Source of the DNA: Candidatus Heimdallarchaeota archaeon B3_Heim
GTDB taxonomy: Archaea > Asgardarchaeota > Heimdallarchaeia > Hodarchaeales > Hodarchaeaceae
DNA: 64,000 nt
Assembly (NCBI GenBank): GCA_003144275.1
Contig: NJBF01000010.1
Coordinates: 27,861-91,860 of the forward strand
Direction: 5' to 3'
Below the pieces are notes generated by a model. The model was not told the origin of the DNA. It saw nothing but the letters and a program-made list of their open reading frames with translations, and did no database searches. Both the position numbers and the translations under genes were made by a program. Within the stretch, counting starts at the first letter, position 1. Every line of letters starts with the position of its first letter. Positions 210 to 26,172 of the stretch are shown one piece after another.

Positions 210-1424
210 ATGTCGGATGAAGATGATAAGAAGTCTTCTCCCCAGGATAGCCCAGATTATACTTCCATACTTGAGAAACAAATAGAATCAGATATTACCG
301 CCATGGAAATGGAAGAATTCTATTTAAAGGCACAAGTGGATCTAGAAAATGCGCTAACTGATGGTGGTGATTTTCTTCACATTCTAGAAGATGCCTACTC
401 CCATTCCCATACAACAGAGGAGGAAGAACAGAAGAAATTCGAACAATTTGGGTTATTTCACTCTCAAAAAACTGAAGAAATTGTAATGTTAACATGTTTC
501 AAGGATTCTGGACGTCCTTTATTTGAGATTTGTCTCTCAGATAAGGCTAGCTGCCAAACTTCCTTGAGTTTTATTTTAAATGCTATGAAAAATTACGTTC
601 GATATAAACTTGGGGAACTCATTGAAGAATTATCCTTGGAATCTCAAACAATTCATTTCTTTGTGATCGAGGAGAAATACATAATTTCAATTGTCACAAC
701 AAAACAAATCACTAGAGACAGAATCGGACAACTCGCAGTACAGATTGTTACGATCATGAAACGGTACTCCGATGAGCGATTACGGGCAAGTACTGACTTT
801 AAACAAGAAGTACTAAAAACAATAGACGGTTTTCAAGCTTCTTTTGTTAAAGAACACCATACACTTAAAATAATTCTAATCGGAGACGGTGCAGTCGGGA
901 AAACATCGATTAGAAGACAATATCTGGGAGAAGGGTTCAGGAATGATTATCAGATGACCATAGGAGCTGATTTAGCAAGTAAAGAGTCACCTGTTTTATA
1001 TTCCGGTGGAAGGCAAGTCAAATACTTAATTTGGGATCTTGCTGGTCAGCCTCGGTTTGAAGGAGTCCGAAAAGCTTATTATATGTCCGCTATGGGAGCT
1101 ATTGTGGTTTTTGATACCACTCGTGTTGAGAGTTTTCAAAACACTGTTGGGTGGATGAATGAATTTTGGAAACTTAATGGTAGGGGACCAGTTCCTATTA
1201 TTATATTAGGAAATAAAGCGGATTTACGTGATGAAGGGGTAATGGGTGTTTCTGATGCAAAAGCTAGAAAATTTGCTAGTACACTCTCTCATGTGGCTAA
1301 ACAATATAGGGGTTTTGACATTCATTATCTCCCAACAAGTGCGAAAACAGGTTTAAATATCAATTTAGCATTTGAGTTATTGGGAGAGGCAGTAATGGAC
1401 TTTTTTGAATCAGTAAAGAAATGA
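210..1424 (+). CDS. Rab/Ras-like small GTPase with an N-terminal roadblock/longin-like extension of about 200 aa
   Basis: All five G motifs are present in the C-terminal half: G1 GDGAVGKTS, switch-I YQMTIGADL (Rab-type TIGxDF), G3 WDLAGQPRF, G4 GNKADL, G5 TSAKTG. The N-terminal 200 aa have an alternating beta/alpha pattern (EIVMLTCFKDSGRPLFEICL...) that resembles a roadblock/longin fold. Confidence 0.75.
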   Translation: MSDEDDKKSSPQDSPDYTSILEKQIESDITAMEMEEFYLKAQVDLENALTDGGDFLHILEDAYSHSHTTEEEEQKKFEQFGLFHSQKTEEIVMLTCFKDSGRPLFEICLSDKASCQTSLSFILNAMKNYVRYKLGELIEELSLESQTIHFFVIEEKYIISIVTTKQITRDRIGQLAVQIVTIMKRYSDERLRASTDFKQEVLKTIDGFQASFVKEHHTLKIILIGDGAVGKTSIRRQYLGEGFRNDYQMTIGADLASKESPVLYSGGRQVKYLIWDLAGQPRFEGVRKAYYMSAMGAIVVFDTTRVESFQNTVGWMNEFWKLNGRGPVPIIILGNKADLRDEGVMGVSDAKARKFASTLSHVAKQYRGFDIHYLPTSAKTGLNINLAFELLGEAVMDFFESVKK

Positions 1425-1616: not shown

Positions 1617-2360
1617 GTGAAATTAATGGATAGAGACTTTATATTAGCGAGAGAGGCACAATTAACATATTCTAATAATGCTGCATCGGGATTCAATCCA
1701 GTAGGAGAATCTCTTGTTCGTTGGCAAGGAACATTAACTTATACAACAAACAGGGGAAGGAATATGTTCACATTTGAGATTTTCCTCCCAGAGTACTTTC
1801 CCAATGTACCTCCAGTTGTAACTGCAATTGGGTGGATGGATCATCCAAATATTGATAAAGATGGATTTATTCAGTTACGGATTCTGGATAATTGGCGAGC
1901 GGAATTTCATCTCTACCAGGTGATTATTGCTTTAAAAAATCTCATGTCTCGTGTACCACCAACCCCACGCGGAGAAACAGCTAAGTCAGTACGCGATACT
2001 ATGGTGAGAATAACTGAACCAGCAATTGAAAACAGAGATTCTAGATCAGCTGCAGAAACAAAAGCATTACGTACAGAATTAACTGCGAAGAATGCTCAAT
2101 TAACTGCAAAGGATGAAGAATTGGCCAGATTAAGAGCTAGGTCCATGATGAGCTCCGAGGAGTCATCAAAGACTCTGAGAATGAAAGTTACCGATCAACA
2201 AGTGCTAGAATCTGAACGAATTGCCATTTCTGATCTCCTATCATCATTAGAAGATCGATATACTGCTGGTGAGATCTCAATCTTTGAATATTCACGTTTA
2301 TACAAGAAATATACCAAAGAGCTTTATTTACTCCGGAAACAGTTAGAATACTTGAGCTAG
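1617..2360 (+). CDS. ESCRT-I Vps23/TSG101-like protein: UEV (catalytically inactive E2 fold) domain plus a C-terminal coiled coil
   Basis: The N-terminal ~120 aa follow the TSG101 UEV layout (beta-hairpin 'tongue', conserved ...YFPNVPPVV...HPNIDKDGFIQLRILDNW... segment, no catalytic Cys). A long heptad coiled coil follows (TELTAKNAQLTAKDEELARLRAR). The gene sits in the ESCRT cluster. Confidence 0.55.
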   Translation: MKLMDRDFILAREAQLTYSNNAASGFNPVGESLVRWQGTLTYTTNRGRNMFTFEIFLPEYFPNVPPVVTAIGWMDHPNIDKDGFIQLRILDNWRAEFHLYQVIIALKNLMSRVPPTPRGETAKSVRDTMVRITEPAIENRDSRSAAETKALRTELTAKNAQLTAKDEELARLRARSMMSSEESSKTLRMKVTDQQVLESERIAISDLLSSLEDRYTAGEISIFEYSRLYKKYTKELYLLRKQLEYLS

Positions 2361-2369
2361 GTAAAAACA

Positions 2370-2990
2370 ATGTCATTTCCTCAAAACTTATCACACAGAT
2401 GGGATCTAGAAGCCCGATTATTTGCGAATATTGGGACTCTCGATTTAATTTCACGTACTTATGATCGTGGAGAGATCGATTCGAGTACATATCATAAACA
2501 GCATAGAACCCTTCTAACTAGTATTATAGAAACACGTGCAGAGTTAGAACAGTATAATTTTGATGTTGATAGATTTATTGAAGAAGAAGGAATTAGCCAA
2601 CTTTTCCCTTCGGGTCTTTCAAAACTCAAAATGACTGAAGGAGCCGGTGATAATGCCTATAGTCGAATTGATTATTCAAGCATAAAGAAACTTCCAACAA
2701 TTGCTGCGGAGTTTGTAGCAAATGCGATTGAATTACTAGATCTTCTACATTTAGAATCAATCGCAACTGTTGATCGAGTGTTACCCTATCTTGATGAAAT
2801 TCACGATATCTTAGTTAGAGTACCAATGTATGGAAATGATCATTGGGTAACACAGGACATAAATCAGTGGATTAACTGGATGGATAAACAAAAACCAGGA
2901 CAATTATTGAAAAACAAGGAGATTAAGAAATTAGAATTACAAGGTTCTCGCTGGCTTTCTGACTTCAGAAGGGAACTAAAAAATCTATAA
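2370..2990 (+). CDS. putative ESCRT-I Vps28-like helical protein
   Basis: 206 aa, predicted all-helical, starts 10 bp downstream of the UEV gene on the same strand. Size and position match Asgard Vps28 homologues. No diagnostic motif was recognised. Confidence 0.35.
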   Translation: MSFPQNLSHRWDLEARLFANIGTLDLISRTYDRGEIDSSTYHKQHRTLLTSIIETRAELEQYNFDVDRFIEEEGISQLFPSGLSKLKMTEGAGDNAYSRIDYSSIKKLPTIAAEFVANAIELLDLLHLESIATVDRVLPYLDEIHDILVRVPMYGNDHWVTQDINQWINWMDKQKPGQLLKNKEIKKLELQGSRWLSDFRRELKNL

Positions 2991-2999
2991 GAATCGTTC

Positions 3000-4346
3000 T
3001 TATAAAAGATTAGTTTTACCAGTTCTTATAAGCAGCTCTGTCCTTTCTTCAGCAATTTTCGCTAATTCAAATTCAAATTGTTTCAAGAGTTCGAAATATT
3101 CACGACCCGCTACTTTTTTACGGCCTTCTTTTAGTTCCTGTAAGGCTCGTTTTGATGCAAGTTCATGAATGCGCAAGTCTCGTAGTCTTTCCTCTAAAAA
3201 ACCATTAACAAAATCTGGGATATTCTCTGGACTCTTACTTGGAGGCTTATTGGAGGAAGATGGGGTACTTTTATGGTTCTGAAAATTTAATGCTGCAAGG
3301 ATTTTTTCCTGATAAATTTCCGAAGACCAATCACGGAATGGTTCATTGATATACAAGTCACTTGGACGACCTAGATAACTCAACTTCAGTGAATTGAATA
3401 TCCGAATAAGATTTTGAGCATCAGACTGTATGACAAAATCTCGTTTAATAGCAGTTATTAAAAGCTTATCCCGCTTTAAAAATCCAGAGTTCTTTTTTTG
3501 TACATCCATTAGCGCTTTGGGAGAGAATTCATCACAAATGATAGTTTTATGGCTTAAAACATTAGTCCTCTTTTTCTGAAGTAATACAATCCTATCCGTT
3601 GTAATAATTAAATCAATAGTAGTCTTCCTAAAGCTATCATTATTGAGATCTAAATTTGAAAAATAGCCAATACCCAATTCACCTGGGATTAAGACGAAAA
3701 TATCGAGACATCGGGCTAGGTGTTTTCGCGTTTCATCAAATAAATCACATTTTTTCTCTACTTGTTCTATAAGGGCGGAGATAGTTTCAAGTTTCGATAC
3801 AACCGTCTGATCAAAGCTCGCTATATGTTTTTGAAATAGAGAGATTTGCAAAGATGAGTTACGAAAAGAATTCTCCGATATTGGGTGACGTACTACATTA
3901 TGGTAGATTCTTTGGAGCTTTGAAGCATATTCCTGAAATTCATTCAAAGTAAAATTTTCAATTTTCTTTGTCTCTAGAAAGATTTTATCAATCAGATTGC
4001 CAGGAATGAGAAATTGTTTGCGAAAGGAACGTAATCTTGACTCCAATTGGCCAGTTCGTTTTAAGAGGATAACAGGACGATATCCTACGTGCTTGAGAGA
4101 TCGTTTAAGGACAAAAATTTCTTCTAATAAGTCCGCTTTTCCATTTTTAATGTGGTCAAATGCTTCAATATTTGGTGATCCACAGGAACACTTGAGTTGG
4201 GAACCAGTCATAAGAGATCGTGTTGCGCATTGTTGACAAAAAGTAGCACCGCAATCTAAACACTTGTGTACCTCCGAAGAAACGAGTGCTGAACCACAAA
4301 AGGAACAGTAACCCGTCGACTCAGAAGAAGACGAACTAAGACCCAA
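3000..4346 (-). CDS. zinc-ribbon protein with a long helical/PH-like C-terminal region, unknown function
   Basis: The N-terminus carries two Cys4 zinc ribbons (CSFCGS...CLDCGATFCQQC...CSCGSP). The remainder is helical with a beta-rich middle segment. It is convergent with the Vps28-like gene inside the ESCRT locus. Confidence 0.5.
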   Translation of the reverse strand: MGLSSSSSESTGYCSFCGSALVSSEVHKCLDCGATFCQQCATRSLMTGSQLKCSCGSPNIEAFDHIKNGKADLLEEIFVLKRSLKHVGYRPVILLKRTGQLESRLRSFRKQFLIPGNLIDKIFLETKKIENFTLNEFQEYASKLQRIYHNVVRHPISENSFRNSSLQISLFQKHIASFDQTVVSKLETISALIEQVEKKCDLFDETRKHLARCLDIFVLIPGELGIGYFSNLDLNNDSFRKTTIDLIITTDRIVLLQKKRTNVLSHKTIICDEFSPKALMDVQKKNSGFLKRDKLLITAIKRDFVIQSDAQNLIRIFNSLKLSYLGRPSDLYINEPFRDWSSEIYQEKILAALNFQNHKSTPSSSNKPPSKSPENIPDFVNGFLEERLRDLRIHELASKRALQELKEGRKKVAGREYFELLKQFEFELAKIAEERTELLIRTGKTNLL

Positions 4347-4687
4347 AGACGTTCCCTATCTATCATAGAATGAATGTAGATTTTTAAGTAAATATAACAT
4401 TACAGAAAGATGACAAGAAAGGAACAAGTAGAGGAGGAAAAGTTCTAGCGCTATTTTGAATTTATCATTTACTAAGAACCTGAAATTCCAATTCTTCCAG
4501 AAAAAGCAATATCCTCCTCATAAATCCCATTTTTCATCTTCCTACTCTCCATAGAGAACTGTTTCTTGACGAAAAGAATAAACAAATTCTCTACTCTGAT
4601 TTCTAGTATCGTATTGTAAAAAATTATAAATAAAGAACTTTGAAGTCTAATTGAACTTAACATAATTAAATCTCGAGGAACAATAAG

Positions 4688-5407
4688 ATGGGCCTTAGAC
4701 GTATAGAAGAGAAAATAACTCAGGAAGCGGCAATGAAGGTAAAGGGTAGTCAATTGGCCCTCTTGTCTCTCAATGAGATGAGTAAAAAGATAAGAAATTT
4801 ACACAAAGAACTTCAGAAGCTAGAATCTCAATATAAATCTGACATTAAGAAGAATCCCGACCTAGCCCAGAAGGTTATGAAACTAAGGGAGGAGCTAGGA
4901 CTTCCTCTTGCAATTGGAATATATGATGTAGGTAAAAAACCTTCATTCAAATCACGACTGCAGGGAAATGATGAATATATTAACTATTTAGGACTAAGAA
5001 TTATAGAGATTGGTAAACAGATACGGAATCATACAGGGGGTATCTTAAGCGTATCAGAATTAATCTTGAAACTTAATGATGAAAGTAAAGGAATTGTGGT
5101 TTCTATTTCAGACGTCAATAACGCTTTGGAACTTTTAACTTCGAATGGATTAATTCATCAGATACGAACACTCGTAGGAATGAAAATTATCGAGTTTATT
5201 GACCCAGAACTGACACAAGATCATCAACGTATACTTGAGTTGGCAGCACAGGCTAATGGCCAGCTTTCAATGACTGAATTAGTTCAAAAATCAACTTGGA
5301 CAATAGAACGAGTAGAACGATCTATAGAAGTTTTGATCAATAAAAAAGTAGCAATCAAATCTAATACCTTAGATGGCATATTAATATCATTTCCAGGTGT
5401 AGGATAG
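4688..5407 (+). CDS. ESCRT-II Vps22/EAP30-like protein (tandem winged-helix)
   Basis: 239 aa with an N-terminal helical hairpin followed by two winged-helix-like units, which is the EAP30 size and architecture. It lies directly upstream of two ESCRT-III genes and Vps4. Confidence 0.5.
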   Translation: MGLRRIEEKITQEAAMKVKGSQLALLSLNEMSKKIRNLHKELQKLESQYKSDIKKNPDLAQKVMKLREELGLPLAIGIYDVGKKPSFKSRLQGNDEYINYLGLRIIEIGKQIRNHTGGILSVSELILKLNDESKGIVVSISDVNNALELLTSNGLIHQIRTLVGMKIIEFIDPELTQDHQRILELAAQANGQLSMTELVQKSTWTIERVERSIEVLINKKVAIKSNTLDGILISFPGVG

Positions 5408-5606: not shown

Positions 5607-6287
5607 TTGAAAATACAAGTGAAACGACTTAAAGGGTTTTTAACGGGATCGAAACCATCTTCATCAACTGAAACAAAAGCGAAGTTAAAAAGAACCATAA
5701 ATCAAATGGAAATAAAGGTAAAAAACTATTCAAGGCAATCTGATGAGCAATATGAGTTAGCACGTCGACTGTTAAAATCTGGGAACAAACCTGGAGCTCA
5801 ACAAGCTCTGAAGCGACGTGAGCTATATTTGACCCAGACAACGAACACTCATAGCAAGATAGCAAACTTACAACGTATCATTGAAACGCTTGATATTTCT
5901 GCAGATAACGTTACTTTAACAGAGACACTAGCGCAGGCACAAATTGCAATTGATAGCAATGTTGAAGCAGCTTCGCCTGAAAGGACAGAAGAAGTAATGA
6001 TGTCCTTAGAGGATTCCATAGAAATGGTTTCAGATATGGAGGACTCTCTTACAGATACCTCGATAACTGAAATCGGAATGGATGTTGAAGCAGATGATCG
6101 AATATCTATGCAAATGGCGGAATTAGAAGCGGAATTATCATCGGGTTCTCTTCCAGCAAGTGAAACAAGTGTTTCTGCAACACCTAGTTCCCCAATATCA
6201 GAAAACACCGCTGGAAAAAAACGTGAAGCAGACAAAAAGAAATTAGATGAGATGCGGAAACAGATTGAAGAAGGTTTGAGGTCATAA
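5607..6287 (+). CDS. ESCRT-III / Snf7-family protein (Vps20/32/60-like)
   Basis: Basic N-terminal helical hairpin (KAKLKRTINQMEIKVKNY...ARRLLKSGNKPGAQQALKRRELY) and an acidic C-terminal half (EDSIEMVSDMEDSL...ELEAELSS), as in Snf7/CHMP proteins. Tandem with a second paralogue and Vps4. Confidence 0.6.
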   Translation: MKIQVKRLKGFLTGSKPSSSTETKAKLKRTINQMEIKVKNYSRQSDEQYELARRLLKSGNKPGAQQALKRRELYLTQTTNTHSKIANLQRIIETLDISADNVTLTETLAQAQIAIDSNVEAASPERTEEVMMSLEDSIEMVSDMEDSLTDTSITEIGMDVEADDRISMQMAELEAELSSGSLPASETSVSATPSSPISENTAGKKREADKKKLDEMRKQIEEGLRS

Positions 6288-6289
6288 AC

Positions 6290-6904
6290 ATGGTTTTTGA
6301 TAAATTTGGTCAATGGCTTAAAGGTGGAGGAAGTGGAGCCAGTTCTACACGGAAGTGGATCGTTCGACTTCGAATGGTTGAAAAACGAATGTTACGTCAA
6401 CGGAAAAAATTGCTAAAAGAAGAAAAAAATATGTTAAAAGAAGTTGAGAAATCCATAGAAGATGGTGATATGTCAACTGCTAGACTATTAGCAAAGGATG
6501 TAGCCAAAAACCGTAATATGGCCCGCGCATGCCAACAAATGGCTAGCAGGGTAAAAGGGATCAAGTTTAAGTTAGAACAAGCAGCTGCTACACAAGCAAT
6601 TGGAAAGGATTTGAAAGGACTCGTACGCACACTTCATACAATGAATGCCGAATTAAAAATTCCACAGCTTGAAGGTGTTCTTCAACAAATGGAAATCGAA
6701 ACAGAGCGAGTTGATATTGCAACAGAAGCAATGGATGAAGGATTTGAGATGATGACAACCGATGGAGAAGAAGATGAAGTGGTTGAAAAAATCCTTGGAG
6801 AGATAAGCGCGTCTAAAGCAGCTACAGCTGATTTTGGTCTTCCTTCTCCCGATATACGGTCCCAAGAATTACAAAAAGAACTAGAAAAAATAAAGAAAAG
6901 CTGA
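6290..6904 (+). CDS. ESCRT-III / Snf7-family protein (Vps2/24/46-like) with a C-terminal MIM-like helix
   Basis: Shows the CHMP-like polarity (basic N-terminal, acidic C-terminal) and a C-terminal amphipathic helix (DIRSQELQKELEKIKK) resembling a MIM1 motif that would bind the Vps4 MIT domain. Start is 2 bp after the preceding ESCRT-III stop. Confidence 0.65.
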   Translation: MVFDKFGQWLKGGGSGASSTRKWIVRLRMVEKRMLRQRKKLLKEEKNMLKEVEKSIEDGDMSTARLLAKDVAKNRNMARACQQMASRVKGIKFKLEQAAATQAIGKDLKGLVRTLHTMNAELKIPQLEGVLQQMEIETERVDIATEAMDEGFEMMTTDGEEDEVVEKILGEISASKAATADFGLPSPDIRSQELQKELEKIKKS

Positions 6905-6956: not shown

Positions 6957-8099
6957 ATGGGTTCTCCTTTATTTGAAGCAGCTAAAAAGAATGCTAGCTT
7001 GGCTTATAAGCTGGATCAAAGTGGACAGACTCAGCAAGCAGTCAAATATTATGTATCTGCAGCTGAACAGTTACAAAAACTCATTAATTTTACTGACGAT
7101 TCAAATATGAAAAATCTCTATTATCACAAAGCAATGGAATATATTTTGCGTGTGAAGGAAATTCGAGGAATAATCGAACCATCTGAAACCCCGACCCCTT
7201 CTTCCGCTCCATCCCCAAAAAGTGACGAAATTTCCGATGCTATTTCAAGTGTTATCGTTCGAGAGAAACCAAACGTGAAGTGGGAAGACGTTGCAGGAAT
7301 GGAGGAGGCTAAACGTGCATTAAGAGAAGCCGTCATCTTACCTATGTCTCGACCTGATTTATTCAAAGGTGCACGTAAACCATGGAAAGGAATTTTGATG
7401 TATGGTCCCCCTGGTTGTGGGAAAACTTATCTATGTAAGGCGGTAGCTTCTGAAGTGGAATCAACCTTTTTTTCAGTAAGTGCAGCGAATTTAATAAGTA
7501 AATGGTTGGGGGAGTCAGAAAAGCTCGTAAATGAACTCTATGAAAGAGCAGTAGAAGAAGCCCCGTCCATAATTTTCTTTGACGAAATCGATGCTTTGGC
7601 AGGAACACGAGGCGGGAGTTCTGAAGGAGAGGCAATGCGAAGAGTGAAAACACAACTATTACAAGCAGTAGAAGGTTTTGCTACTGGTGATGAACTACTG
7701 GTCACTATAGGAGCAACGAATACGCCTTGGGATATCGATGCTGCAATGCGTAGACGTTTTGAACGTCGTGTTTATGTAACACTCCCAGCAAGGGAAGCAA
7801 GGGAGGTAATGTTTTCAATTCATACAAAAGGGATTCCCATGGGTGCAGATGTTGATTTTAAAGCATTAGCTGAAATTACAGGCGGATATACGGCTGCAGA
7901 TATTGCTTTAGTGTGTCGTGAATCCTTGATGCAACCGATTCGTGAACTGGATGCAGAAGGGGCCCTAACCGATATGACTGTACAAGTACGAGCTCCGAAA
8001 GCAGTTGATTTTCATAATGCCATGATGCATATTCGTCCCTCAGTCGCTCCAGATGAGCTTGCGCGATATGATAAATGGCGCGATAAATTTGGAGGGTAG
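6957..8099 (+). CDS. vps4: Vps4-like AAA+ ATPase (MIT domain + AAA cassette)
   Basis: N-terminal three-helix MIT-like domain (AAKKNASLAYKLDQSGQTQQAVKYYVSAAEQLQKL), Walker A GPPGCGKTY, Walker B IIFFDEIDAL, second region of homology ATNTPWDIDAAMRRRF, and a C-terminal Vps4 helix. Confidence 0.9.
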   Translation: MGSPLFEAAKKNASLAYKLDQSGQTQQAVKYYVSAAEQLQKLINFTDDSNMKNLYYHKAMEYILRVKEIRGIIEPSETPTPSSAPSPKSDEISDAISSVIVREKPNVKWEDVAGMEEAKRALREAVILPMSRPDLFKGARKPWKGILMYGPPGCGKTYLCKAVASEVESTFFSVSAANLISKWLGESEKLVNELYERAVEEAPSIIFFDEIDALAGTRGGSSEGEAMRRVKTQLLQAVEGFATGDELLVTIGATNTPWDIDAAMRRRFERRVYVTLPAREAREVMFSIHTKGIPMGADVDFKALAEITGGYTAADIALVCRESLMQPIRELDAEGALTDMTVQVRAPKAVDFHNAMMHIRPSVAPDELARYDKWRDKFGG

Positions 8100-8141: not shown

Positions 8142-8915
8142 ATGGCCGAATTACAACGAAAAAAGGAAAAGGTTGACAAGAAAAAAACTTCAGTTGATGT
8201 ACTTGAAGATGTACTTCAGCAAGTAACAGCAGACAAACCGAAATCAACTAAGATAGAAGCTCCAAAAATCAAACAAAAACCTTTAACGAATACTTTACCT
8301 TATTCCCAGTTTCATAAATCGCAATCAAAGGTCGAACAAACGATAACTGTGAAGTCCGAACGAATTTCATTAGCTGAGCTAAAACCTGGTACCGTTCATC
8401 CTAATGTAAAACCGATTTTACCTGGTTGGGTTACAAAGCCATGGCGATGGATGATTCCAGAGGATCCTGAATTAAAACAGCAGTGGTTGCTTACCTGGGG
8501 GGATTTCTTACTTGCATTTGCACGTGTGTTAAACCAACATATACTCGATCTCCAGGAAGTTAGCCTAGTCTACCCATTTCAAAATGGGGTACTTCATAAA
8601 AAGCTGTCAATTCCACAGTTAAAAGCTATTTCTGAGTATTTAATTGAGCAAGAAAATGCCTCATGGTGGGATACAGACGAAACACAACTTAGGGTATACT
8701 GGAAGACCCTCAATTCTTTTGCCGAGGAAATTTTCAATTATTCCTTCCAAAACGGATTTGAAATGATCACACTTTATGATATGGTCAAAATGAATCAGTC
8801 TTGGTCATCCCTTCCACCTAAGGATCTTGCTATTATTATGAAACTCATGGTAAAGTCAAAGAAAGCTACATGGGCGGACTCAGAACAGAAAACAATAGAA
8901 TTTGTTTTTTTTTAA
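8142..8915 (+). CDS. hypothetical protein at the end of the ESCRT locus (possible Vps25-like winged-helix protein)
   Basis: 257 aa, same strand and 42 bp downstream of vps4. Basic N-terminal tail followed by mixed alpha/beta. No motif recognised; the Vps25 suggestion rests on synteny only. Confidence 0.3.
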   Translation: MAELQRKKEKVDKKKTSVDVLEDVLQQVTADKPKSTKIEAPKIKQKPLTNTLPYSQFHKSQSKVEQTITVKSERISLAELKPGTVHPNVKPILPGWVTKPWRWMIPEDPELKQQWLLTWGDFLLAFARVLNQHILDLQEVSLVYPFQNGVLHKKLSIPQLKAISEYLIEQENASWWDTDETQLRVYWKTLNSFAEEIFNYSFQNGFEMITLYDMVKMNQSWSSLPPKDLAIIMKLMVKSKKATWADSEQKTIEFVFF

Positions 8916-9026: not shown

Positions 9027-9680
9027 ATGACAACCCCTATACAAGAAGAAGAATTGCTCACGCCTCTAGAAGATTATTTAAAAGCAGGTGTCCACATTGG
9101 AACATCTAGCGGAATGAAAAGCATGGATTGGGCGATCTATCGTACTCGAAACGATGGGCTTTACGTTTTAGATGTCCATAAAACTGATGATCGTATACGT
9201 ACTGCAGCAAAATTCCTTGCACGTCAAGATACGTCACGAGTGGCTGCATGTAGTGTCAGGGCATACGGAATTTATCCTGTAGAAATGTTCTGCAAAGTGA
9301 CAGGAGCAGAGCCTATTACTGGAAGATTTATTCCGGGAATTTTCACGAATCCAAGCATCAAAGGAAGATATAATTTTATCGAACCCACTAGCATATTAAT
9401 TACTGATCCTCACTTCGATCATCAAGCTCTGAAAGAAGCTTATCGAATGGGAATCCCTGTTATTTCTCTTGTTGACACTGATAACACAATAAGTAATATT
9501 GATCTTGCTATTCCTTGTAACAACAAAGGGCGTAATTCCTTAGCCATGATATTCTGGTTATTAACAAAGGAAATTCTTAGAGAACGTGGTGAATTAACAC
9601 CAGAAAAAGATGCTCAATTAAGGGTAGAATTATTTAGAGCCCCACGAGGTCGACGACCCCTGAGCGATGATGGATTTTAA
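9027..9680 (+). CDS. rps2: 30S ribosomal protein uS2
   Basis: Archaeal S2 signature segments YLKAGVHIGT...DGLYVLDVHKTDDRIRTAAKFL...LITDPHFDHQALKEAYRMGIPVISLVDTDN. Confidence 0.85.
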   Translation: MTTPIQEEELLTPLEDYLKAGVHIGTSSGMKSMDWAIYRTRNDGLYVLDVHKTDDRIRTAAKFLARQDTSRVAACSVRAYGIYPVEMFCKVTGAEPITGRFIPGIFTNPSIKGRYNFIEPTSILITDPHFDHQALKEAYRMGIPVISLVDTDNTISNIDLAIPCNNKGRNSLAMIFWLLTKEILRERGELTPEKDAQLRVELFRAPRGRRPLSDDGF

Positions 9681-9696
9681 CAGGTGAATTAGCACT

Positions 9697-9900
9697 ATGA
9701 TGATCCCTATACGGTGTTATACTTGCGGAAAAGTTATTGCCCACTATTATGATGATTTTTTAGACGGCATGAAAGCTGGTAAGGAAGCATCAGAACTACT
9801 AGATTCATTTGATCTAAAGCGATACTGCTGCAGAAGAATGTTAATTACACACGTAGAGCTTATTGATGATATTCTTACTTTTTCAAGCCCAGTTCGTTAA
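9697..9900 (+). CDS. rpoN: DNA-directed RNA polymerase subunit N (Rpb10 homologue)
   Basis: 67 aa with MIPIRCYTCGKVI...YCCRRML, the conserved zinc-bundle CX2C...CC motif of RpoN/Rpb10. Lies directly downstream of rps2. Confidence 0.85.
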   Translation: MMIPIRCYTCGKVIAHYYDDFLDGMKAGKEASELLDSFDLKRYCCRRMLITHVELIDDILTFSSPVR

Positions 9901-11039: not shown

Positions 11040-12005
11040 ATGGTGAGCAGTACTAACGATTTTACCAAGCTAACAATAGCAAAAGAGGTACGAGGTCGAC
11101 TTCAAGAAGAATTTCCCAGTTTAATGGCACTAGCTGCGACTCCTCCTGCGGAAGTAATGAAACGCTGTGAAGTAAGTAAGTCTTCCGCGGAACGGGCTGT
11201 CAATCAAGCTCGAAAAATCATCGGGATGAATCAACCGACTACCGCAGCATCATTATTAAAGAAAGAGTTAGATAGACCAAGAATTACGACCTCTTCACAG
11301 TCTCTAGATGATATATTGGGAGGAGGTATAACAGTAGGATCCATAACGGAGTTTAGTGGGGCATTTGCGACAGGAAAAACTCAGATATCATTCCAGTTAT
11401 GTTTAAACGTTCAAAGATCAGTGGAGGATGGCGGGTTAGCAGGAAAAGCATTATTTTTAGATACTGAAAACACTTTTGCACCAGCTCGAGTAGCAGAGAT
11501 GGCATATTCCTACACAGATGATCCAAGTGAATATTTACAGAATATCTTAGTGAGTCGAGCCTATAATACAGATCATCAGATACAGCTCATAGATAAGGCA
11601 GACAAAATACTTGAGAAGAATAATATACGACTAATAATAATTGATTCTATGGCCTCACATTTTCGTGCTGAATTTCCCGGTAAAGAGAATCTTCCACGGC
11701 GTCAACAGACACTAATGGCCCATGCAGAAACCCTCCAAAGATTAGCTGAATCATACAATTTGGCTATAATCACAACTAATCAAATCCTCAGTAATCCTGA
11801 TAATTTATTTTCGGGGGCGAATAATTTAGAACCTGCATTGGGATTCGCTTGGGGTCATAGACCAACTCATAGAATTTTGTTACGAAAATCACGAGGGACG
11901 GCACGTATTGCACGAATATTTGATTCTCCCGAACTGGCAGAACGAGAAGCAGTATACCATATTACACCTCAAGGTATACGTGATGGCCCTCCTCTTGATT
12001 ACTAA
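11040..12005 (+). CDS. radA: DNA repair and recombination protein RadA
   Basis: N-terminal HhH-like domain then a RecA/Rad51 core: Walker A GAFATGKTQ, Walker B LIIIDSM, L1/L2-like loops. 321 aa. Confidence 0.85.
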   Translation: MVSSTNDFTKLTIAKEVRGRLQEEFPSLMALAATPPAEVMKRCEVSKSSAERAVNQARKIIGMNQPTTAASLLKKELDRPRITTSSQSLDDILGGGITVGSITEFSGAFATGKTQISFQLCLNVQRSVEDGGLAGKALFLDTENTFAPARVAEMAYSYTDDPSEYLQNILVSRAYNTDHQIQLIDKADKILEKNNIRLIIIDSMASHFRAEFPGKENLPRRQQTLMAHAETLQRLAESYNLAIITTNQILSNPDNLFSGANNLEPALGFAWGHRPTHRILLRKSRGTARIARIFDSPELAEREAVYHITPQGIRDGPPLDY

Positions 12006-12138
12006 CATCGGTATATTCTTATTTCATAAAAAGAGAAAGCCGTAACTGTCTCGAATACTCATTTGAGAAAATTAAGACGGTTTTTCCGTAACCTAGTCAA
12101 TAAAATAAAAATGACAAACAGATAACTGAGGCACAAGA

Positions 12139-12909
12139 TTGAACAAATCAAATGGAAATTCTTTCAGCTACTTTCATAAGGTAGCAGAAGTAAAAATAAA
12201 GTCCCCTACTGTCGTTATCCAAGGGTTACCTGGCATGGGGCTAATTGGGAAGATTGCCGCTAATTTCTTAATCGATCAGTATGATGGTGTTGAAATAGCC
12301 CGAATATACAGTTCATTTTTCCCCCCCGTTGTCCAAATTGACAATGAACAGGGGATTGGTCAATTAGCTCGTATGGAAATTTATGCCATAACCAAATCGA
12401 CTCCGAACTTATTAATTTTGACAGGAGATGCACAACCTCACGATATAGGTATTATTCAAGTACTAAACGAAGTACTTGATTTCGTCATTGAACTGAAAGC
12501 TGAAACGGTTGTGTGTTTAGGTGGATTAAGGGCATTGGAAGAAGGACCAGAAGTTGCTGCATTCGGATATAATGAAGAAACTATGAAATGGTTAGAGGAG
12601 TATGATATCACTCCATTAAAGGGAGGAGAAATAACAGGAGCGGTTGGTGTATTCTCGGCCTTAGCAGCTGAAAAAGGGTTACGAAGTTTCGGATTACTTG
12701 GAAAATTAACGCTTGTCGGTACTGACCCGTTAGCCAGCAAAAATCTGTTGAAACACTTAGCAAAACTCTTCTCACTGGATTATAAGTATGAAGATTTGGA
12801 TGGAATCATAGAGGAAGCCGTTCAGAAAAATGACTTACTTCACAAAGCTGAGGAAGCAGAAAGCTCATCAGAGGATGAAAGCTCCCGAGGACCAAGTTAT
12901 TACATTTAA
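12139..12909 (+). CDS. PAC2-family protein (proteasome assembly chaperone-like, COG1938)
   Basis: N-terminal VVIQGLPGMGLIGKIAANFLI matches the conserved GxPGxGxVG motif of archaeal PAC2/PbaB-type proteins. ~250 aa with an acidic C-terminal tail. Confidence 0.55.
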   Translation: MNKSNGNSFSYFHKVAEVKIKSPTVVIQGLPGMGLIGKIAANFLIDQYDGVEIARIYSSFFPPVVQIDNEQGIGQLARMEIYAITKSTPNLLILTGDAQPHDIGIIQVLNEVLDFVIELKAETVVCLGGLRALEEGPEVAAFGYNEETMKWLEEYDITPLKGGEITGAVGVFSALAAEKGLRSFGLLGKLTLVGTDPLASKNLLKHLAKLFSLDYKYEDLDGIIEEAVQKNDLLHKAEEAESSSEDESSRGPSYYI

Positions 12910-12910
12910 T

Positions 12911-14209
12911 TCAATGAGAGAATAAATTATTCCTTTCAGCGAATTGTAACCGTCGTCGAAATAGCGCGGTAATAAAAAAAGATGCAATCATCAGTGATAG
13001 CATAAATAGTAATCCACCAACTGGGGACTGGAACATATCAAGTAATGCACCAAAGACTGTGGGAGAAATAGAGCTAATAACAAGCCCTAGGGAAAAAACA
13101 ATTGAATAAAAAAAGGTTCTATCTTTCGCAGGAACTAAATCAGCCTGTAATGCTTGTAAAGTGCCTCCAGCCAAATAAAAACCAACAGCAAAGGTAGAAA
13201 ATCCGAAAATAATAACCAAAATCTCCGAAAAACCTAGAGTAATTATAATTAGTCCCATGATCGCAATACTAGAGATTAGTGCGGAAATAAGTATTATCCG
13301 CGTTCTTCCACGCGGACCCAATCGATCTGACTTGACAGCACCATAGATATCAGAGATAGATCCAAATAAAAGGATCAAGCTTGTTAAGACTCCTGCAAAG
13401 AAAGCATCCACAGAATAGAAATTTTTCAGTAGGGTCGTTGTAAAATAGCTAATTGATCGGTAAACTCCTCCTCGTAAAGCGCTAATTAAAATAATGAGTG
13501 CTAAACTAGTTAAAATCCAGTTTCGATGGGGAGAAGATCGAATTGAAAGGTTGTTTGATACATTAGTTACCAGTTTCTTCTCTTCCTTCGCTATTACTAA
13601 AGATTCAAAACGAGAAACCAGATTTTGAAGAAAAAGCCATAACATAAGGAATATTACAAGAAGTATACAAAATACTCCAAGGAAGAAAAAGGTTAAACGC
13701 CATGTGAACACAAAAATGGCTAGGGTTAGGGTACTGAAAGGACTCACAGCAGTTCCAATGACACCTGCTGCATGGTTGATAGCCATAGCTTTTCCACGAT
13801 TGTGTTCTGAGAAAGAATTCGCACAAACGCCTAATCCTACAGGATGATAAGTTGTACAACCAAGACCAAGAATAATATTTCCAATAAATAATCCAAAAAA
13901 GTCATTGGCTGTCGTGATACTAAAACAGGAAACAGCAAAAAGAAGGACTCCCATAAGGACAATGAAAAATCCTGTGACTGGTTTTTTACCTAAATAACCA
14001 ATTAATGGGGAGGTAAAGGCCATGATTAAAGAAGGAAGAGAACCTAAGATACCCATTTCAAGATAATTGAGAGGAATGTCATCAATAATGAGAATAAGTA
14101 AAGCTGGAAAGGCATACAATAGCACATGATGAATAAAATGAGAGATTGACATAAATCCTAGCAATTGGTGCCGAATATTCAAAGCCAAAACAGATACCTC
14201 TGGTATCAC
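12911..14209 (-). CDS. MFS-type transporter
   Basis: 432 aa, about 12 predicted TM helices in two 6-helix halves, hydrophobic composition typical of the major facilitator superfamily. Confidence 0.65.
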   Translation of the reverse strand: MIPEVSVLALNIRHQLLGFMSISHFIHHVLLYAFPALLILIIDDIPLNYLEMGILGSLPSLIMAFTSPLIGYLGKKPVTGFFIVLMGVLLFAVSCFSITTANDFFGLFIGNIILGLGCTTYHPVGLGVCANSFSEHNRGKAMAINHAAGVIGTAVSPFSTLTLAIFVFTWRLTFFFLGVFCILLVIFLMLWLFLQNLVSRFESLVIAKEEKKLVTNVSNNLSIRSSPHRNWILTSLALIILISALRGGVYRSISYFTTTLLKNFYSVDAFFAGVLTSLILLFGSISDIYGAVKSDRLGPRGRTRIILISALISSIAIMGLIIITLGFSEILVIIFGFSTFAVGFYLAGGTLQALQADLVPAKDRTFFYSIVFSLGLVISSISPTVFGALLDMFQSPVGGLLFMLSLMIASFFITALFRRRLQFAERNNLFSH

Positions 14210-14225
14210 AAGGAAAAAAGGATTC

Positions 14226-14828
14226 TTAATTTTTCTTTCGGATTTTTACTAGTTTGATCCCCACACCAAGAAGAACACCACACAAAAGGACAATAGACAG
14301 AAGAATTAAAGTCCATGAAAATGCATGTTCAAATGCAAACCGAAGAATAGCCCAAGGTAGACAAATAAAAGCGGCAAATAATTCAATTATTAGAATACGT
14401 AAGCCCCATTTCTGCCAAAACCAGACACGGTCTAGTGTGCCGCTTTTTCCTTCAAGAACTTTCATGTGGGATAATCCTGCTTGGATATAGCATGCATAGG
14501 AAAACATAGCAAGAAGAAACAAGAGAATAAAAATTATGATCATATAAGAATAATGACTTGGCCAGTAATCTGTAATAATTGAATCGGGTAACCATTGACG
14601 AATCGTATCAACGAAACCAAACTGATCTCCAATTGGTTCATCTAAAAAATTATACTGATTGGAACCAATTCTTTCAGCATTTACTGAAACCAGAAAAATT
14701 GAAGCTGTTAAGAAAAATCCTGCTAAAATAGCAGCTGCGGTAGAGAAATGGCCGAGTAAATCCAAAGCGGATTCTTTAACTATCAATCCTTCATCATAGG
14801 CTTTCTTGCGGTCATCATCAGACATCAA
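14226..14828 (-). CDS. membrane protein, unknown function
   Basis: 200 aa with 4-5 hydrophobic helices. Co-directional between two MFS genes. Confidence 0.45.
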   Translation of the reverse strand: MMSDDDRKKAYDEGLIVKESALDLLGHFSTAAAILAGFFLTASIFLVSVNAERIGSNQYNFLDEPIGDQFGFVDTIRQWLPDSIITDYWPSHYSYMIIIFILLFLLAMFSYACYIQAGLSHMKVLEGKSGTLDRVWFWQKWGLRILIIELFAAFICLPWAILRFAFEHAFSWTLILLSIVLLCGVLLGVGIKLVKIRKKN

Positions 14829-21113: not shown

Positions 21114-22658
21114 TTATATCTCAATTTCAACGGTAGGCTTTTTTTTCTGTTCTGTTTTTGATGCCAGTCGCGCTCGTGCCTGAACCCAGGTACGTAATGC
21201 CGTAATATCTTCCTTCATCAATCGGGATAGTGGAACCATATTTTCCAAGGCATTCATGATATCTGTGGTTTCGACTTCACGATCCTCAGAAAAAGCATCG
21301 AACATAGCTGTGATGAGGGTTTGTTCTATTTCTGCTCCGGAATAGCCTTTACTTAACCCAACCAGTGTTCTCATATCAAATTTTTCTGTTTCACGCCCTC
21401 TTTTCTTAATATGGATAGAGAAGATATCTTCACGTTCCTTTGGGGAAGGTAAGTCTAAAAAGAAGATTTCATCAAATCTACCTTTTCTCATGAGTTCAGG
21501 AGGCAATCGCTGGACATTATTGGCGGTTGCGATTACAAATACTGGTTTTTTCTTCTCTTGAAGCCAAGTAATAAAAGTCCCAAACACTCTGCTTGTTGTT
21601 CCTGCATCCGTAAGATTACTGGACTGTACTCCCGCAAATCCTTTCTCTATTTCATCAATCCATAGAATAGAAGGAGAAACAGATTCAGCTGTTTTTATAG
21701 CGTTCCGAATATTCTGTTCACTCTCACCAACAACTCCTCCAAACACCTTTCCTACATCAAATCGTAGTAAGGGTAATTTCCATAATGAAGCTACTGCTTG
21801 GGCAGTAAGCGATTTTCCTGTTCCAGGAATGCCAATCAACATCAGACCTGAGGGAAAGGGTAATCCATACTCTCTTGCTTTTTCAGTAAAGCCTCGATTA
21901 CGGATGGTTAACCATTCTTTTAAGTGTTCTAATCCTCCAATATTATCAAAGTGTTCGCTAGAATGATAATATTCCAGTATTCCTGATTTACGAATAATTT
22001 GTTCTTTTTCTTGGATTATAATTGCAGGGTCAAACCGTTTTACTTCGACAAGTGATTTGGCAAAGACATTTTCTGCCTCATCCACAGTAAGTCCAAGAGC
22101 TGATTTTAGGACAGCTTCCCTTTCTTCCTCGGTTAAACTGATATCAACTCTAGGATTCATTTTTAATGGTTCAATAATTCCTTCTAGAACAGTATCCAAT
22201 AGCTCTAAGGTTGGAAAATCAAAGTCGACAACATTAATCATTTTTTCTAATTCAATTGGTACTTCCAAAACTGGAGAAACAAGAATACATGTTTTTTTCA
22301 AATTATTAAGGTGAATTTTGAGGTCACGAAGTTTTCGAATAACCACTGGATCTTTCATAAAAGGATGAAAGTCTTTTAACATGAAGATCGCGGGCCTCGG
22401 GTAATCGGTAATGAATGTTAACGCAGCAAAAGGATCCACTGCTTCCCCATCCAATTTTTTACCTAGAAAATCCGAAAACCCTTCTGTCGTACTCCAAATG
22501 ATCAATTGTTTCTCTGATTTTACAGCAAGAGTATTCAACATAACAGCCACCCTTTCCTCTTCCCAAGTGGTGATATAGATGAGAGAGTAACGAGCACGAA
22601 TTAAAATATCAACCTTTTTTTGTTGATCCTCACTAACCTTTTTCATAGAGGTCACCAA
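21114..22658 (-). CDS. Ycf46-like AAA+ ATPase
   Basis: 514 aa with a ~250-aa N-terminal domain, then Walker A GIPGTGKSL and Walker B ILWIDEIEKGF, with sensor-1/arginine-finger regions. Length and layout match the Ycf46 family as I recall it. Confidence 0.7.
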   Translation of the reverse strand: MVTSMKKVSEDQQKKVDILIRARYSLIYITTWEEERVAVMLNTLAVKSEKQLIIWSTTEGFSDFLGKKLDGEAVDPFAALTFITDYPRPAIFMLKDFHPFMKDPVVIRKLRDLKIHLNNLKKTCILVSPVLEVPIELEKMINVVDFDFPTLELLDTVLEGIIEPLKMNPRVDISLTEEEREAVLKSALGLTVDEAENVFAKSLVEVKRFDPAIIIQEKEQIIRKSGILEYYHSSEHFDNIGGLEHLKEWLTIRNRGFTEKAREYGLPFPSGLMLIGIPGTGKSLTAQAVASLWKLPLLRFDVGKVFGGVVGESEQNIRNAIKTAESVSPSILWIDEIEKGFAGVQSSNLTDAGTTSRVFGTFITWLQEKKKPVFVIATANNVQRLPPELMRKGRFDEIFFLDLPSPKEREDIFSIHIKKRGRETEKFDMRTLVGLSKGYSGAEIEQTLITAMFDAFSEDREVETTDIMNALENMVPLSRLMKEDITALRTWVQARARLASKTEQKKKPTVEIEI

Positions 22659-24279: not shown

Positions 24280-26172
24280 TCAAGGGTTTCGCCGTTTTCT
24301 GATTACAGGAAAAACTGCTAGGACTAGTAACAAATATGTAAAGCCTGGAGAGATGGTAGGAGTTGTTGGTTCTGTTGTGGTGGTAACTGTGGATTTTTCC
24401 GTGGTTGATATAATTTCAGAAGTTGTTGTATTTGTTGTAGTGGTGGTCGTTGATGTTGTGGTGTTCGTCGTGGATACATGTTCAGAAGCATCATATACAA
24501 TACTTAGCAGTTCTACTTGAAAATAGAGATCTCCATCACCATATGCCTCTTCTGAGAGTATAGTGAAATTCTTTACCTGATTGATTGCCATGCCAATTAA
24601 CGCTTCTTCAAATTTTAGGAGGAAAGCAGAGCGGGCTTCTGGATAAAAAGCTAGTATATCAGGGGGGACAGTTTGTTCTATGGAGAGATAGATATTGTTT
24701 AGTTCGACATTTGTATATCCAGGAACTTCAACACTATAATTGTTATCTTCATATAATGTATGACGGACATTGACAATATCTCCCCAATCGGCAGTATTTT
24801 CTTGGGGTTGATCAGACCAAGCAATGGCTGTATAAGTTGGATCATGATAGATTTCTCCACCGTACCATTCTGGAAATTCTGTAAACGTCAAATAAAGGAA
24901 TTGGTTTACCACTTCAGTGTGTTGGCCTGCTCCTGGAAGTACGATATTTGGTGCTATTTTAGATGCCACAAACACGGTAGATGACCAAGCAAGCGAAAGT
25001 TCTACCGTAAAATATGCTTTTGCTACATTGGTGAATGTCCAACCACTTGGATCAAACAAAGTAACGTATACATCACGATTTACGTCAGGATCAATGTTGA
25101 AGGGGGCGAAATCTAACTCTCTAAGTTTGTAGGTCATCTTATCCTTAAAACTAGTCCAAAAGAATACATTACCATTGTTTTCAACGTCAATTGTTGGATT
25201 TTCTGGATCATCTAAGTGAGTAGCATATTGAGGATTGCTAACTGTCTCTACATCAAACCAGTTTGTGGCAGTGATAACAGTCAAACCAAAGGCATCAGCC
25301 CTGCTCATTCTTAGTTTGGCATCATTCTCAATATAGAACGCCATTTCTGGTAGAGTAATGCTTACACTGTCCGGAAATATCCCTGAACTTCCATATGTAC
25401 TCATATCAATACCTTGTAAAGCAGCAGGAACATCTAGAGTATAGCTGGGGGATTCTATAAAAGGAGAGCCTTCCCAAATCCCTGCGTTGGCAGCAATAAA
25501 GGCAGCATCATCACCTATCGTCGCAAAGAAACTTGATTCACCGATGTGATACTTTGTCTCAACTGTTCCTAGATTGATTGTAATTGCAGGAGTGGTTGGT
25601 AATTCAATCTCTTCTACCTCAAATGAGTATTCAAATGCAAGATGATCAAGAACTGAAACAGCCACAATATCTTGCCCATATATATTACCTTTAGTATCTG
25701 GAAGCTGCAAACCAGCTGCACTGAGGATATCTGGCCCTCTCAGTTCCACATCAACATCTTGCCATAAAACTAACATATTAGTATAATTGATTCCAAAGTT
25801 ATACCCTGTTACAGTTTGTTCAAAGCTAGCTTCATAATCAAAGTGAGGAATTCGATAGGAAGTATGAGGAGCTAAGTTAGCGTTTAACGCATCAGCCAAT
25901 TCTTGAACTGCAAACGTATATCCCATATAGAGATTATTGCCACTATCCATTCGTAAGGAATCTGCACCAGTACTTTTGGAATAAGCAATTAATCCCATAA
26001 AATTGTTTGTTACGAAAGCCTCAGTCCCCCAAGGAGTATTGTAGTGTTGAACTAATTGCTGGAAGGGGGCTGTTGCATTGACATGGAATATATTTGACTC
26101 AAGAGCTGCAGATGAACCTGGTAAGAGAGAATCCCCAAGAGCCTCGAGAATGGTAACTACATCAAGAGGCAA
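24280..26172 (-). CDS. cell-surface (S-layer-like) protein with a Thr-rich linker and PGF-CTERM sorting signal; N-terminal part apparently supplied by 26173..26508
   Basis: C-terminus is ...TTTSTTTTTTNTTTSEIISTTEKSTVTTTTEPTTPTISPGFTYLLLVLAVFPVIRKRRNP (PGF + TM helix + basic tail). The predicted start is a TTG immediately after an in-frame TAA. No signal peptide at this N-terminus. Confidence 0.6.
   Translation of the reverse strand: MPLDVVTILEALGDSLLPGSSAALESNIFHVNATAPFQQLVQHYNTPWGTEAFVTNNFMGLIAYSKSTGADSLRMDSGNNLYMGYTFAVQELADALNANLAPHTSYRIPHFDYEASFEQTVTGYNFGINYTNMLVLWQDVDVELRGPDILSAAGLQLPDTKGNIYGQDIVAVSVLDHLAFEYSFEVEEIELPTTPAITINLGTVETKYHIGESSFFATIGDDAAFIAANAGIWEGSPFIESPSYTLDVPAALQGIDMSTYGSSGIFPDSVSITLPEMAFYIENDAKLRMSRADAFGLTVITATNWFDVETVSNPQYATHLDDPENPTIDVENNGNVFFWTSFKDKMTYKLRELDFAPFNIDPDVNRDVYVTLFDPSGWTFTNVAKAYFTVELSLAWSSTVFVASKIAPNIVLPGAGQHTEVVNQFLYLTFTEFPEWYGGEIYHDPTYTAIAWSDQPQENTADWGDIVNVRHTLYEDNNYSVEVPGYTNVELNNIYLSIEQTVPPDILAFYPEARSAFLLKFEEALIGMAINQVKNFTILSEEAYGDGDLYFQVELLSIVYDASEHVSTTNTTTSTTTTTTNTTTSEIISTTEKSTVTTTTEPTTPTISPGFTYLLLVLAVFPVIRKRRNP

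Follow-up and report, generated by a model that had tools for sequence, protein, structure and literature searches.

The window, the whole stretch of 64,000 nucleotides from Candidatus Heimdallarchaeota archaeon B3_Heim analysed here, carries a complete Asgard-type ESCRT cluster, as judged from Pfam matches of the neighbouring open reading frames. Within this cluster, a minus-strand open reading frame at 3000..4346 encodes a protein of 448 amino acids plus stop codon from a TTG start. The frame cannot be extended at its 5' end because an in-frame TAG lies four codons upstream of the TTG. The locus comprises:

210-1424, plus strand: GTPase gene, 404 aa, with a C-terminal Ras/Rab-like domain (Pfam)
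1617..2360, plus strand: UEV/Vps23-like gene (Pfam UQ_con and UEV), proposed partner of the target
2370..2990, plus strand: Vps28 (Pfam VPS28), proposed partner of the target
3000..4346, minus strand: target coding sequence, 448 aa, with homologues and dN/dS values described below
4347..4687, no strand: divergent intergenic region of 341 bp, common to the target and EAP30/Vps22
4688-5407, plus strand: EAP30/Vps22 (Pfam)
5607-6287 and 6290-6904: two Snf7 genes (Pfam)
6957-8099: Vps4, with MIT, AAA and Vps4_C domains (Pfam)
8142-8915: ESCRT-II/Vps25 (Pfam)

The target and Vps28 are arranged tail to tail with 9 nt between their stop codons, while the 341-bp gap separates the target head-to-head from EAP30/Vps22. 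An A/T-rich, TATA-like element, TTATATTT, can be read directly from the sequence about 45 nt 5' of the TTG, and we infer that it is a putative promoter of the target. The original prediction had placed the gene between the ESCRT-I and ESCRT-II genes, and this is borne out by Vps28 on one side and EAP30/Vps22 on the other; the coordinates, the 448-aa length, the cysteines and the genomic context that it gave were likewise correct according to the reading of the ORF and the Pfam matches of the neighbours.

The GTPase gene at 210-1424 (plus strand) precedes UEV-Vps28 in almost every Hodarchaeales locus and therefore looks like a fixed component of the ESCRT cluster. The Ras/Rab/Arf-like domain of its product covers only aa 214-395 of 404, and the N-terminal half of about 200 aa has no match in Pfam. 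To the left of the cluster, relatives encode Yip1, a ThiF-type E1 and ubiquitin (loci L001 12324-15891, L003 14023-17380, L005 14599-16849 and L006 13314-15686), in L001 and L003 together with a KaiC-like ATPase and a second small GTPase. Since Yip1, E1 and ubiquitin lie beside it, the ESCRT cluster belongs to a larger ubiquitin/trafficking island, which is cut off by the window edge at position 1. Elsewhere in the window, the products of 43615-49212 (plus strand, 1865 aa) and 24280-26172 (minus strand, 630 aa) have no Pfam family at E <= 1e-5. The 514-aa product of 21114-22658 (minus strand) has one AAA domain, at aa 272-402, and its long N-terminal part is unannotated. Close to the target homologue of Heimdallarchaeota LC_3, L004 16154-17752 likewise codes for an AAA protein, of 532 aa; divergent Vps4 paralogues in Hodarchaeota were mentioned by Makarova et al. 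2024 (PMC10936438).

The first search for relatives of the target returned 52 homologues with 48-91% identity, all from metagenome-assembled genomes of Hodarchaeales/Heimdallarchaeia and none with a Pfam domain; homologues number about 75 in all. The family is small, since only 21 proteins emerged when 1.84 billion cluster representatives were searched exhaustively with an HMMER profile. About a dozen full-length relatives are divergent (17-32% identity), among them HeimC3_02860 of Heimdallarchaeota LC_3, and searches with broadened and with divergent-only alignments added no lineage beyond Heimdall/Hodarchaeales. In an alignment of 37 sequences, eight cysteines are invariant or nearly so, and the long helical, the beta-rich and the C-terminal blocks are also conserved. 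Compared with three orthologues, the target has a dN of 0.05-0.07 and a dN/dS of 0.025-0.05, within the range of the core ESCRT neighbours (0.02-0.09), these ratios being approximate because dS is near saturation. The gene is under strong purifying selection.

Conservation of the gene in related loci was examined with a synteny scan that was anchored on Vps28 in species-representative genomes, and thus did not select on the target, with nine genes located by tblastn. The scan covered 18 loci from Hodarchaeales-type genomes, the Loki, Thor and AB_125 loci lying outside this sample. In all 18 the target gene comes immediately after Vps28, in opposite orientation, and is followed by EAP30, Snf7, Snf7, Vps4 and Vps25 wherever the contig continues. 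Identity to the protein of the window ranged from 44 to 98% and tracked the identities of Vps28, EAP30 and Vps25. Three more loci, found via the target protein, have the identical gene order. The distant relatives P0056 and P0064 are likewise encoded tail to tail with Vps28 and UEV, even where EAP30 has moved away, as in L005. These data confirm a real, strongly conserved Hodarchaeales gene that in Vps28-anchored loci always has ESCRT-I genes on one side and ESCRT-II genes on the other, in fixed linkage with Vps28 and UEV-Vps23. A random insertion missing from the corresponding loci of relatives, which the original prediction named as its refutation, is clearly contradicted.

LC_3 is the only genome whose homologue sits outside the ESCRT cluster. 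Its gene HeimC3_02860 (L004, MDVS01000006.1, 10001-11407) lies near a PadR/S26e pair and a gene for an EF-2-like GTPase. Because these border the ESCRT cluster in L006, and the EF-2-like gene does so in L005, the displacement suggests rearrangement, not transfer. Some further loci show peculiarities. In L016 (~11981-14625) and L021 (~11949-13526), 1.5-2.6 kb of extra DNA lie in the divergent promoter region between target and EAP30. The nine cluster proteins of L007 (DXJL01000056.1, Candidatus Heimdallarchaeota archaeon isolate MAG_8) are 93-100% identical to those of the window, and MAG_8 is the same species or a near-identical one. In L006 (9875-11230), the gene called for P0064 (409 aa) is N-terminally truncated; tblastn similarity to the target begins farther upstream, at 9875, which corresponds to query residue 13, and an ORF of 105 aa is called separately at 9416-9733. 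The truncation may stem from a miscalled start site or from a frameshift in the metagenome-assembled genome.

An AlphaFold2 model built from the 37-sequence alignment (mean pLDDT 80.3) shows a protein of four modules, namely a cross-braced zinc finger, a three-helix region, a PH domain and a linker-joined hairpin. The parts, all on the minus strand, are:

4161..4316: zinc module, eight-Cys binuclear, aa 11-62
3711..4142: three long helices forming the "coiled-coil" region, aa 69-212
3369..3689: PH-superfamily domain, seven strands and a C-terminal helix, aa 220-326
3279..3368: conserved post-PH block, a short helical segment, aa 327-356
3216..3278: disordered linker, pLDDT below 50 and highest column entropy, aa 357-377
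3021..3215: C-terminal helical hairpin, modelled helices 378-406 and 414-442, aa 378-442

The three long helices (69-106, 116-153 and 158-212) are modelled with pLDDT of ~90-97, and the last one continues into the PH domain. By column entropy, the post-PH block (PFRDWSSEIYQEKIL; RPSxxYIxEPFRDWSSEIYQEKILxxLNF) and the hairpin are the best-conserved parts of the family, with W340 retained even among relatives of 17-22% identity, while the low-complexity, variable linker is the least conserved. A conserved P(S/T)xP motif is absent from the linker by direct reading of sequence and alignment. The distant relatives have a collinear architecture identical to that of the target. Scans of the full protein against Pfam and NCBIfam gave only sub-threshold zinc-finger matches and no PH, GRAM or Vps36 model.

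The cysteine spacing of the zinc module, C-x2-C-x11-C-x2-C-G-x2-F-C-x2-C-x12-C-x-C, is that of cross-braced fingers. Among 19 family members, the sub-threshold Pfam matches were to FYVE (13), ANCHR-like B-box (12), zf-RING_2 (10), RING-like (7) and C1 (6) models, while zinc-ribbon models matched only 4-5. A profile search of the PDB with this module returned B-box1 of MID1, C1, FYVE and RING domains, and its fold matches were the binuclear cross-braces of RING, U-box and ZZ proteins. In the LC_3 homologue, cysteine pairs 2 and 4 are lost together with pairs 1 and 3 kept, which argues for a cross-brace since sequential ribbons would not predict it. In P0026 and P0032, the sixth zinc ligand C40 is replaced by a His-containing stretch (FCKR-HYH / FCQY-HYQ; alignment columns ~55-60), a typical ligand swap that supports metal binding at this position. 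Thus, of the two N-terminal Cys4 ribbons originally described, the eight cysteines stand, and by spacing, fold matches and the paired loss in LC_3 the module should be read as one probable binuclear finger of RING/ZZ/FYVE-like cross-braced type.

NZF domains are fingers of about 30 aa with the pattern W-x-C-x2-C-x3-N-x6-C-x2-C, in which a T-F dipeptide binds ubiquitin. An NZF reading of the N-terminus, which had been suggested for testing, was rejected: zf-RanBP had no match at E <= 10 in the 19 members, no NZF/RanBP signature is present, G-S-A-L-V follows C17, and the fold is RING/ZZ-like. The CxxCGxxFCxxC core spacing of FYVE domains matches that of the zinc module, and the FYVE matches in 13 of the 19 members all fall short of the threshold (14.4 bits, cut-off 27.8). 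In contrast to FYVE domains, the PI3P motifs WxxD and (R/K)(R/K)HHCR are absent from the target and the family consensus; at the position of RRHHCR the target reads S-E-V-H-K-C-L-D-C and the consensus E-x-Q-K-C-L-D-C.

For the middle segment, which had been described as PH/GLUE-like, the model yields a PH-superfamily domain at aa 220-326. The PH fold, of seven strands and a helix and GRAM-like as in GLUE of Vps36, is therefore retained from that description, but not GLUE specifically, which ranks 35th among the PH matches. R252 is invariant (ITTDRIV), and R240 and K241 in the beta1-beta2 loop are conserved. PH folds bind many ligands.

The C-terminal hairpin was compared by hhalign with alignments of all eight other cluster proteins. 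It matched residues 194-243 of 247 of the UEV/Vps23-like neighbour with P 0.0014 in an alignment of 48 columns that takes in the two helices and their loop; the seven control proteins gave 0.12-0.67, and no similarity to the Vps28 N-terminus or EAP30 appeared. The score of 24.8 was reached by none of 200 column shuffles (12.0 +/- 2.2, maximum 20.7) and compares with 12.9 for the reversed control; a second hhalign run repeated the match with P 9e-4. The match is nevertheless modest, with 21% identity and an hhalign probability of 18-23%, and convergence is easy for helical hairpins. Only profile-profile comparison reveals it: by BLASTP the hairpin had no significant match to the UEV and Vps28 neighbours, and HMMER searches with the hairpin profile gave coiled-coil noise in PDB and Pfam (Nup58, V-ATPase E), without a Vps23_core, Mod_r, VPS28 or CdvA signal. 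The matched neighbour has an E2 fold, continues with a stalk helix and ends in a steadiness-box hairpin; it is a UEV because Gln replaces the catalytic Cys of E2 enzymes (HPNIDKDGFIQL). Vps23_core matched four of 14 orthologous C-termini (best E 1.3e-5) and CdvA three, the copy in the window itself being below detection for Vps23_core; judged by these orthologues, the hairpin of the neighbour is a genuine Vps23 steadiness box. We conclude with moderate confidence that the target, too, probably ends in a Vps23-type steadiness box, the evidence for which is specific.

The architecture of the target resembles that of Znr_CC_PH_SB (cog.011556; also Znr_PH_CC_SB), an Asgard-specific family with zinc ribbons, coiled coil, PH domain and steadiness box, exemplified by Lokiarchaeum GC14_75 As_004-p_01543 (Makarova et al. 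2024, mBio, PMC10936438). From computation only, these authors considered the family "likely ancestral in Asgardarchaeota" and "a likely ESCRT-I component", with a PH domain expected to be membrane associated (PMC10936438). A 2023 preprint lists cog.011556 and cog.012202 among the "Steadiness/Vps23 box" families. The accessible part of the table of the 2024 paper gives cog.011556 only for the Loki protein, and the gene coordinates of the LC_3 homologue do not appear there (PMC10936438). The kind of protein encoded by the target is already known, because the domain order is identical: zinc module, coiled-coil/helical region, PH domain and steadiness-box hairpin, the last at moderate support. 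The association with ESCRT genes and the proposed role are also the same, and the protein of Heimdall AB_125, As_001-p_01324 of cog.006820, is close in size to the target at 435 aa. In contrast, Znr_CC_PH_SB is described with three zinc ribbons and a Loki example of 650 aa, whereas the target has 448 aa and eight cysteines for two zinc sites in one RING/ZZ-like cross-brace. Profile searches started from the target family never went beyond Heimdall/Hodarchaeales proteins, and the likeness to the Loki and AB_125 proteins is one of description. The Hodarchaeales protein is therefore a well-defined new example of a recently predicted architecture and, by its domain order, a putative member of cog.011556. 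New in comparison with the 2024 prediction are the cross-braced RING/ZZ/FYVE-like zinc module and the specifically Vps23-like nature of the hairpin. We found no experimental work on Znr_CC_PH_SB-type proteins in the literature.

We propose that the target is a lineage-specific accessory subunit of Hodarchaeales ESCRT-I, a reading, including the following mechanism, to which we assign a probability of roughly 0.55. The hairpin would be a paralogue of the Vps23 steadiness box and would pack with the Vps23-like and Vps28 hairpins in the ESCRT-I headpiece, in the place taken by Vps37 in eukaryotes and by a second copy of Vps23 in Odinarchaeota. By analogy, the PH domain, carried on a linker of ~20 residues, would contact the membrane via R240/K241/R252, and the PH domain and/or the RING/ZZ-like finger would recognise cargo, ubiquitin or a partner protein. 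The target would thus supply the membrane/cargo recognition which eukaryotes put in the GLUE domain of Vps36 and in ESCRT-0; these archaea have a Vps22-like protein only, without Vps36. Hatano et al. 2022 (PMC9192718) described a headpiece of 2 Vps23 : 1 Vps28 in Odinarchaeota and found neither Vps36 nor Vps37 in Asgards, proposing Vps37 as a eukaryotic innovation. Since a second Vps23 occurs in that headpiece, a protein with a Vps23-like hairpin could fill the position of Vps37. Like Vps37, the target is predicted to add a third-subunit hairpin to the Vps23-Vps28 headpiece, and Mvb12/UBAP1-type subunits bring ubiquitin or membrane-binding modules to ESCRT-I. Unlike Vps37, the target has no Mod_r match even at E <= 10, a disordered linker instead of a stalk helix continuous with the hairpin, and a zinc finger and PH domain that Vps37 lacks. 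Against our proposal also stand the modest hairpin similarity with its missing HMMER signals, the position of the LC_3 homologue and, for the membrane arm, the many ligands of PH folds.

The original prediction suggested that the protein may be a Vps36-like bridge between ESCRT-I and ESCRT-II. As an analogue of the Vps36 GLUE domain, it would use its PH domain and zinc finger to bind lipid, ubiquitin and the C-terminal domain of Vps28 and so link ESCRT-I to a Vps22-like (EAP30) homodimer without GLUE domain. Both modules are present, and the GRAM-like PH fold is common to the target and the GLUE domain of Vps36/EAP45. However, the tandem winged helices and the Vps22-pairing helical domain of Vps36 are absent (no EAP30 Pfam match), the post-PH part consisting only of linker and hairpin in the model, and the hairpin, which Vps36 does not have, matches Vps23 and not EAP30. 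In yeast Vps36 an NZF is inserted in the PH domain, whereas the target has an uninterrupted PH domain and an N-terminal, RING/ZZ-like zinc module. The low rank of GLUE and the distant relative in L005, which keeps its place with Vps28 and UEV and not EAP30, argue in the same direction, as do yeast two-hybrid results for Heimdall and Loki, in which Vps28/Vps23 contacted Vps22 directly without a bridge (Hatano et al., PMC9192718). We regard a bridge of this kind as possible but doubtful, though it overlaps in part with our proposal; the target may do a GLUE-like job, yet attached to ESCRT-I and not as a member of the Vps36 family. The original interpretation is in part supported. Clearly less probable is an upstream ubiquitin adaptor of ESCRT-0-like or E3-like character, which would attach through its finger to a protein with E2 fold (the Vps23-like UEV domain or a true E2~Ub), to ubiquitin or to N-degrons, so that cargo would be selected or ubiquitinated at the membrane and then passed to ESCRT-I. 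The cross-brace fold with its RING/U-box/ZZ matches, the recurrent sub-threshold FYVE, B-box and RING matches in Pfam, and the ubiquitin and E1 (ThiF) genes in the wider cluster of related genomes speak for it, as does F16, which is invariant in C-S-F-C at what is presumably the site where RINGs carry the hydrophobic residue that contacts the E2. Vps27/Hrs of ESCRT-0 also has an FYVE-type eight-Cys finger followed by helical/coiled-coil regions and an upstream role in membrane/cargo recognition feeding ESCRT-I, but the target is without VHS, UIM and RRHHCR and has a PH domain and steadiness box instead of P(S/T)xP.

The top 30 Foldseek matches in the PDB were DH-PH tandems (E ~1e-5, 310-386 aligned columns), and a Ras/Rab-like GTPase is encoded within the conserved cluster, three genes away at 210-1424, for which the target could be a DH-PH-like guanine-nucleotide exchange factor. 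A RhoGEF of this type was rejected, as three long helices and not a six-helix DH bundle precede the PH domain, and we consider an exchange factor very unlikely. At least as unlikely is a passenger gene that is unrelated to ESCRT and lies in the locus by chance. The opposite strand, the putative promoter of its own and the LC_3 homologue outside the cluster would fit this explanation, yet it is effectively refuted by the synteny in 18 of 18 loci and by distant relatives still beside Vps28; the Vps23-like hairpin also contradicts it, and so does the gene's evolution at the same rate and dN/dS as the ESCRT subunits.

Asgard archaea have Vps23, Vps28, Vps22 and Vps25, and we know of neither a recognisable Vps36 or Vps37 in them nor conserved components of ESCRT-0, for instance Vps27 or Bro1/Alix. 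Because these are absent, it is in question how Asgard ESCRT finds membrane and cargo. The target is the sole uncharacterised gene fixed in the ESCRT-I/II cluster of Hodarchaeales, the lineage currently placed closest to eukaryotes, and its PH domain, cross-braced zinc finger and Vps23-type hairpin are the kinds of modules suited to this task. In a more far-reaching version, which we offer as speculation with little expectation that it holds in full, one polypeptide would merge elements of ESCRT-0 (FYVE/RING-like finger and helices), ESCRT-I (steadiness box) and ESCRT-II (GLUE-type PH domain), acting as a genuine third headpiece subunit with its finger docked on UEV or ubiquitin. The Vps37-like position in ESCRT-I would then predate eukaryotes, and ubiquitin recognition, membrane binding and ESCRT-I assembly would be directly coupled.

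The concept of an accessory ESCRT-I subunit of this architecture is already in print as a 2024 prediction, and it is directly testable because the protein is small and soluble-looking with clear domain boundaries. If the hairpin of the target joins the ESCRT-I headpiece as we propose, a three-subunit ESCRT-I with a membrane-targeting arm would predate eukaryotes.
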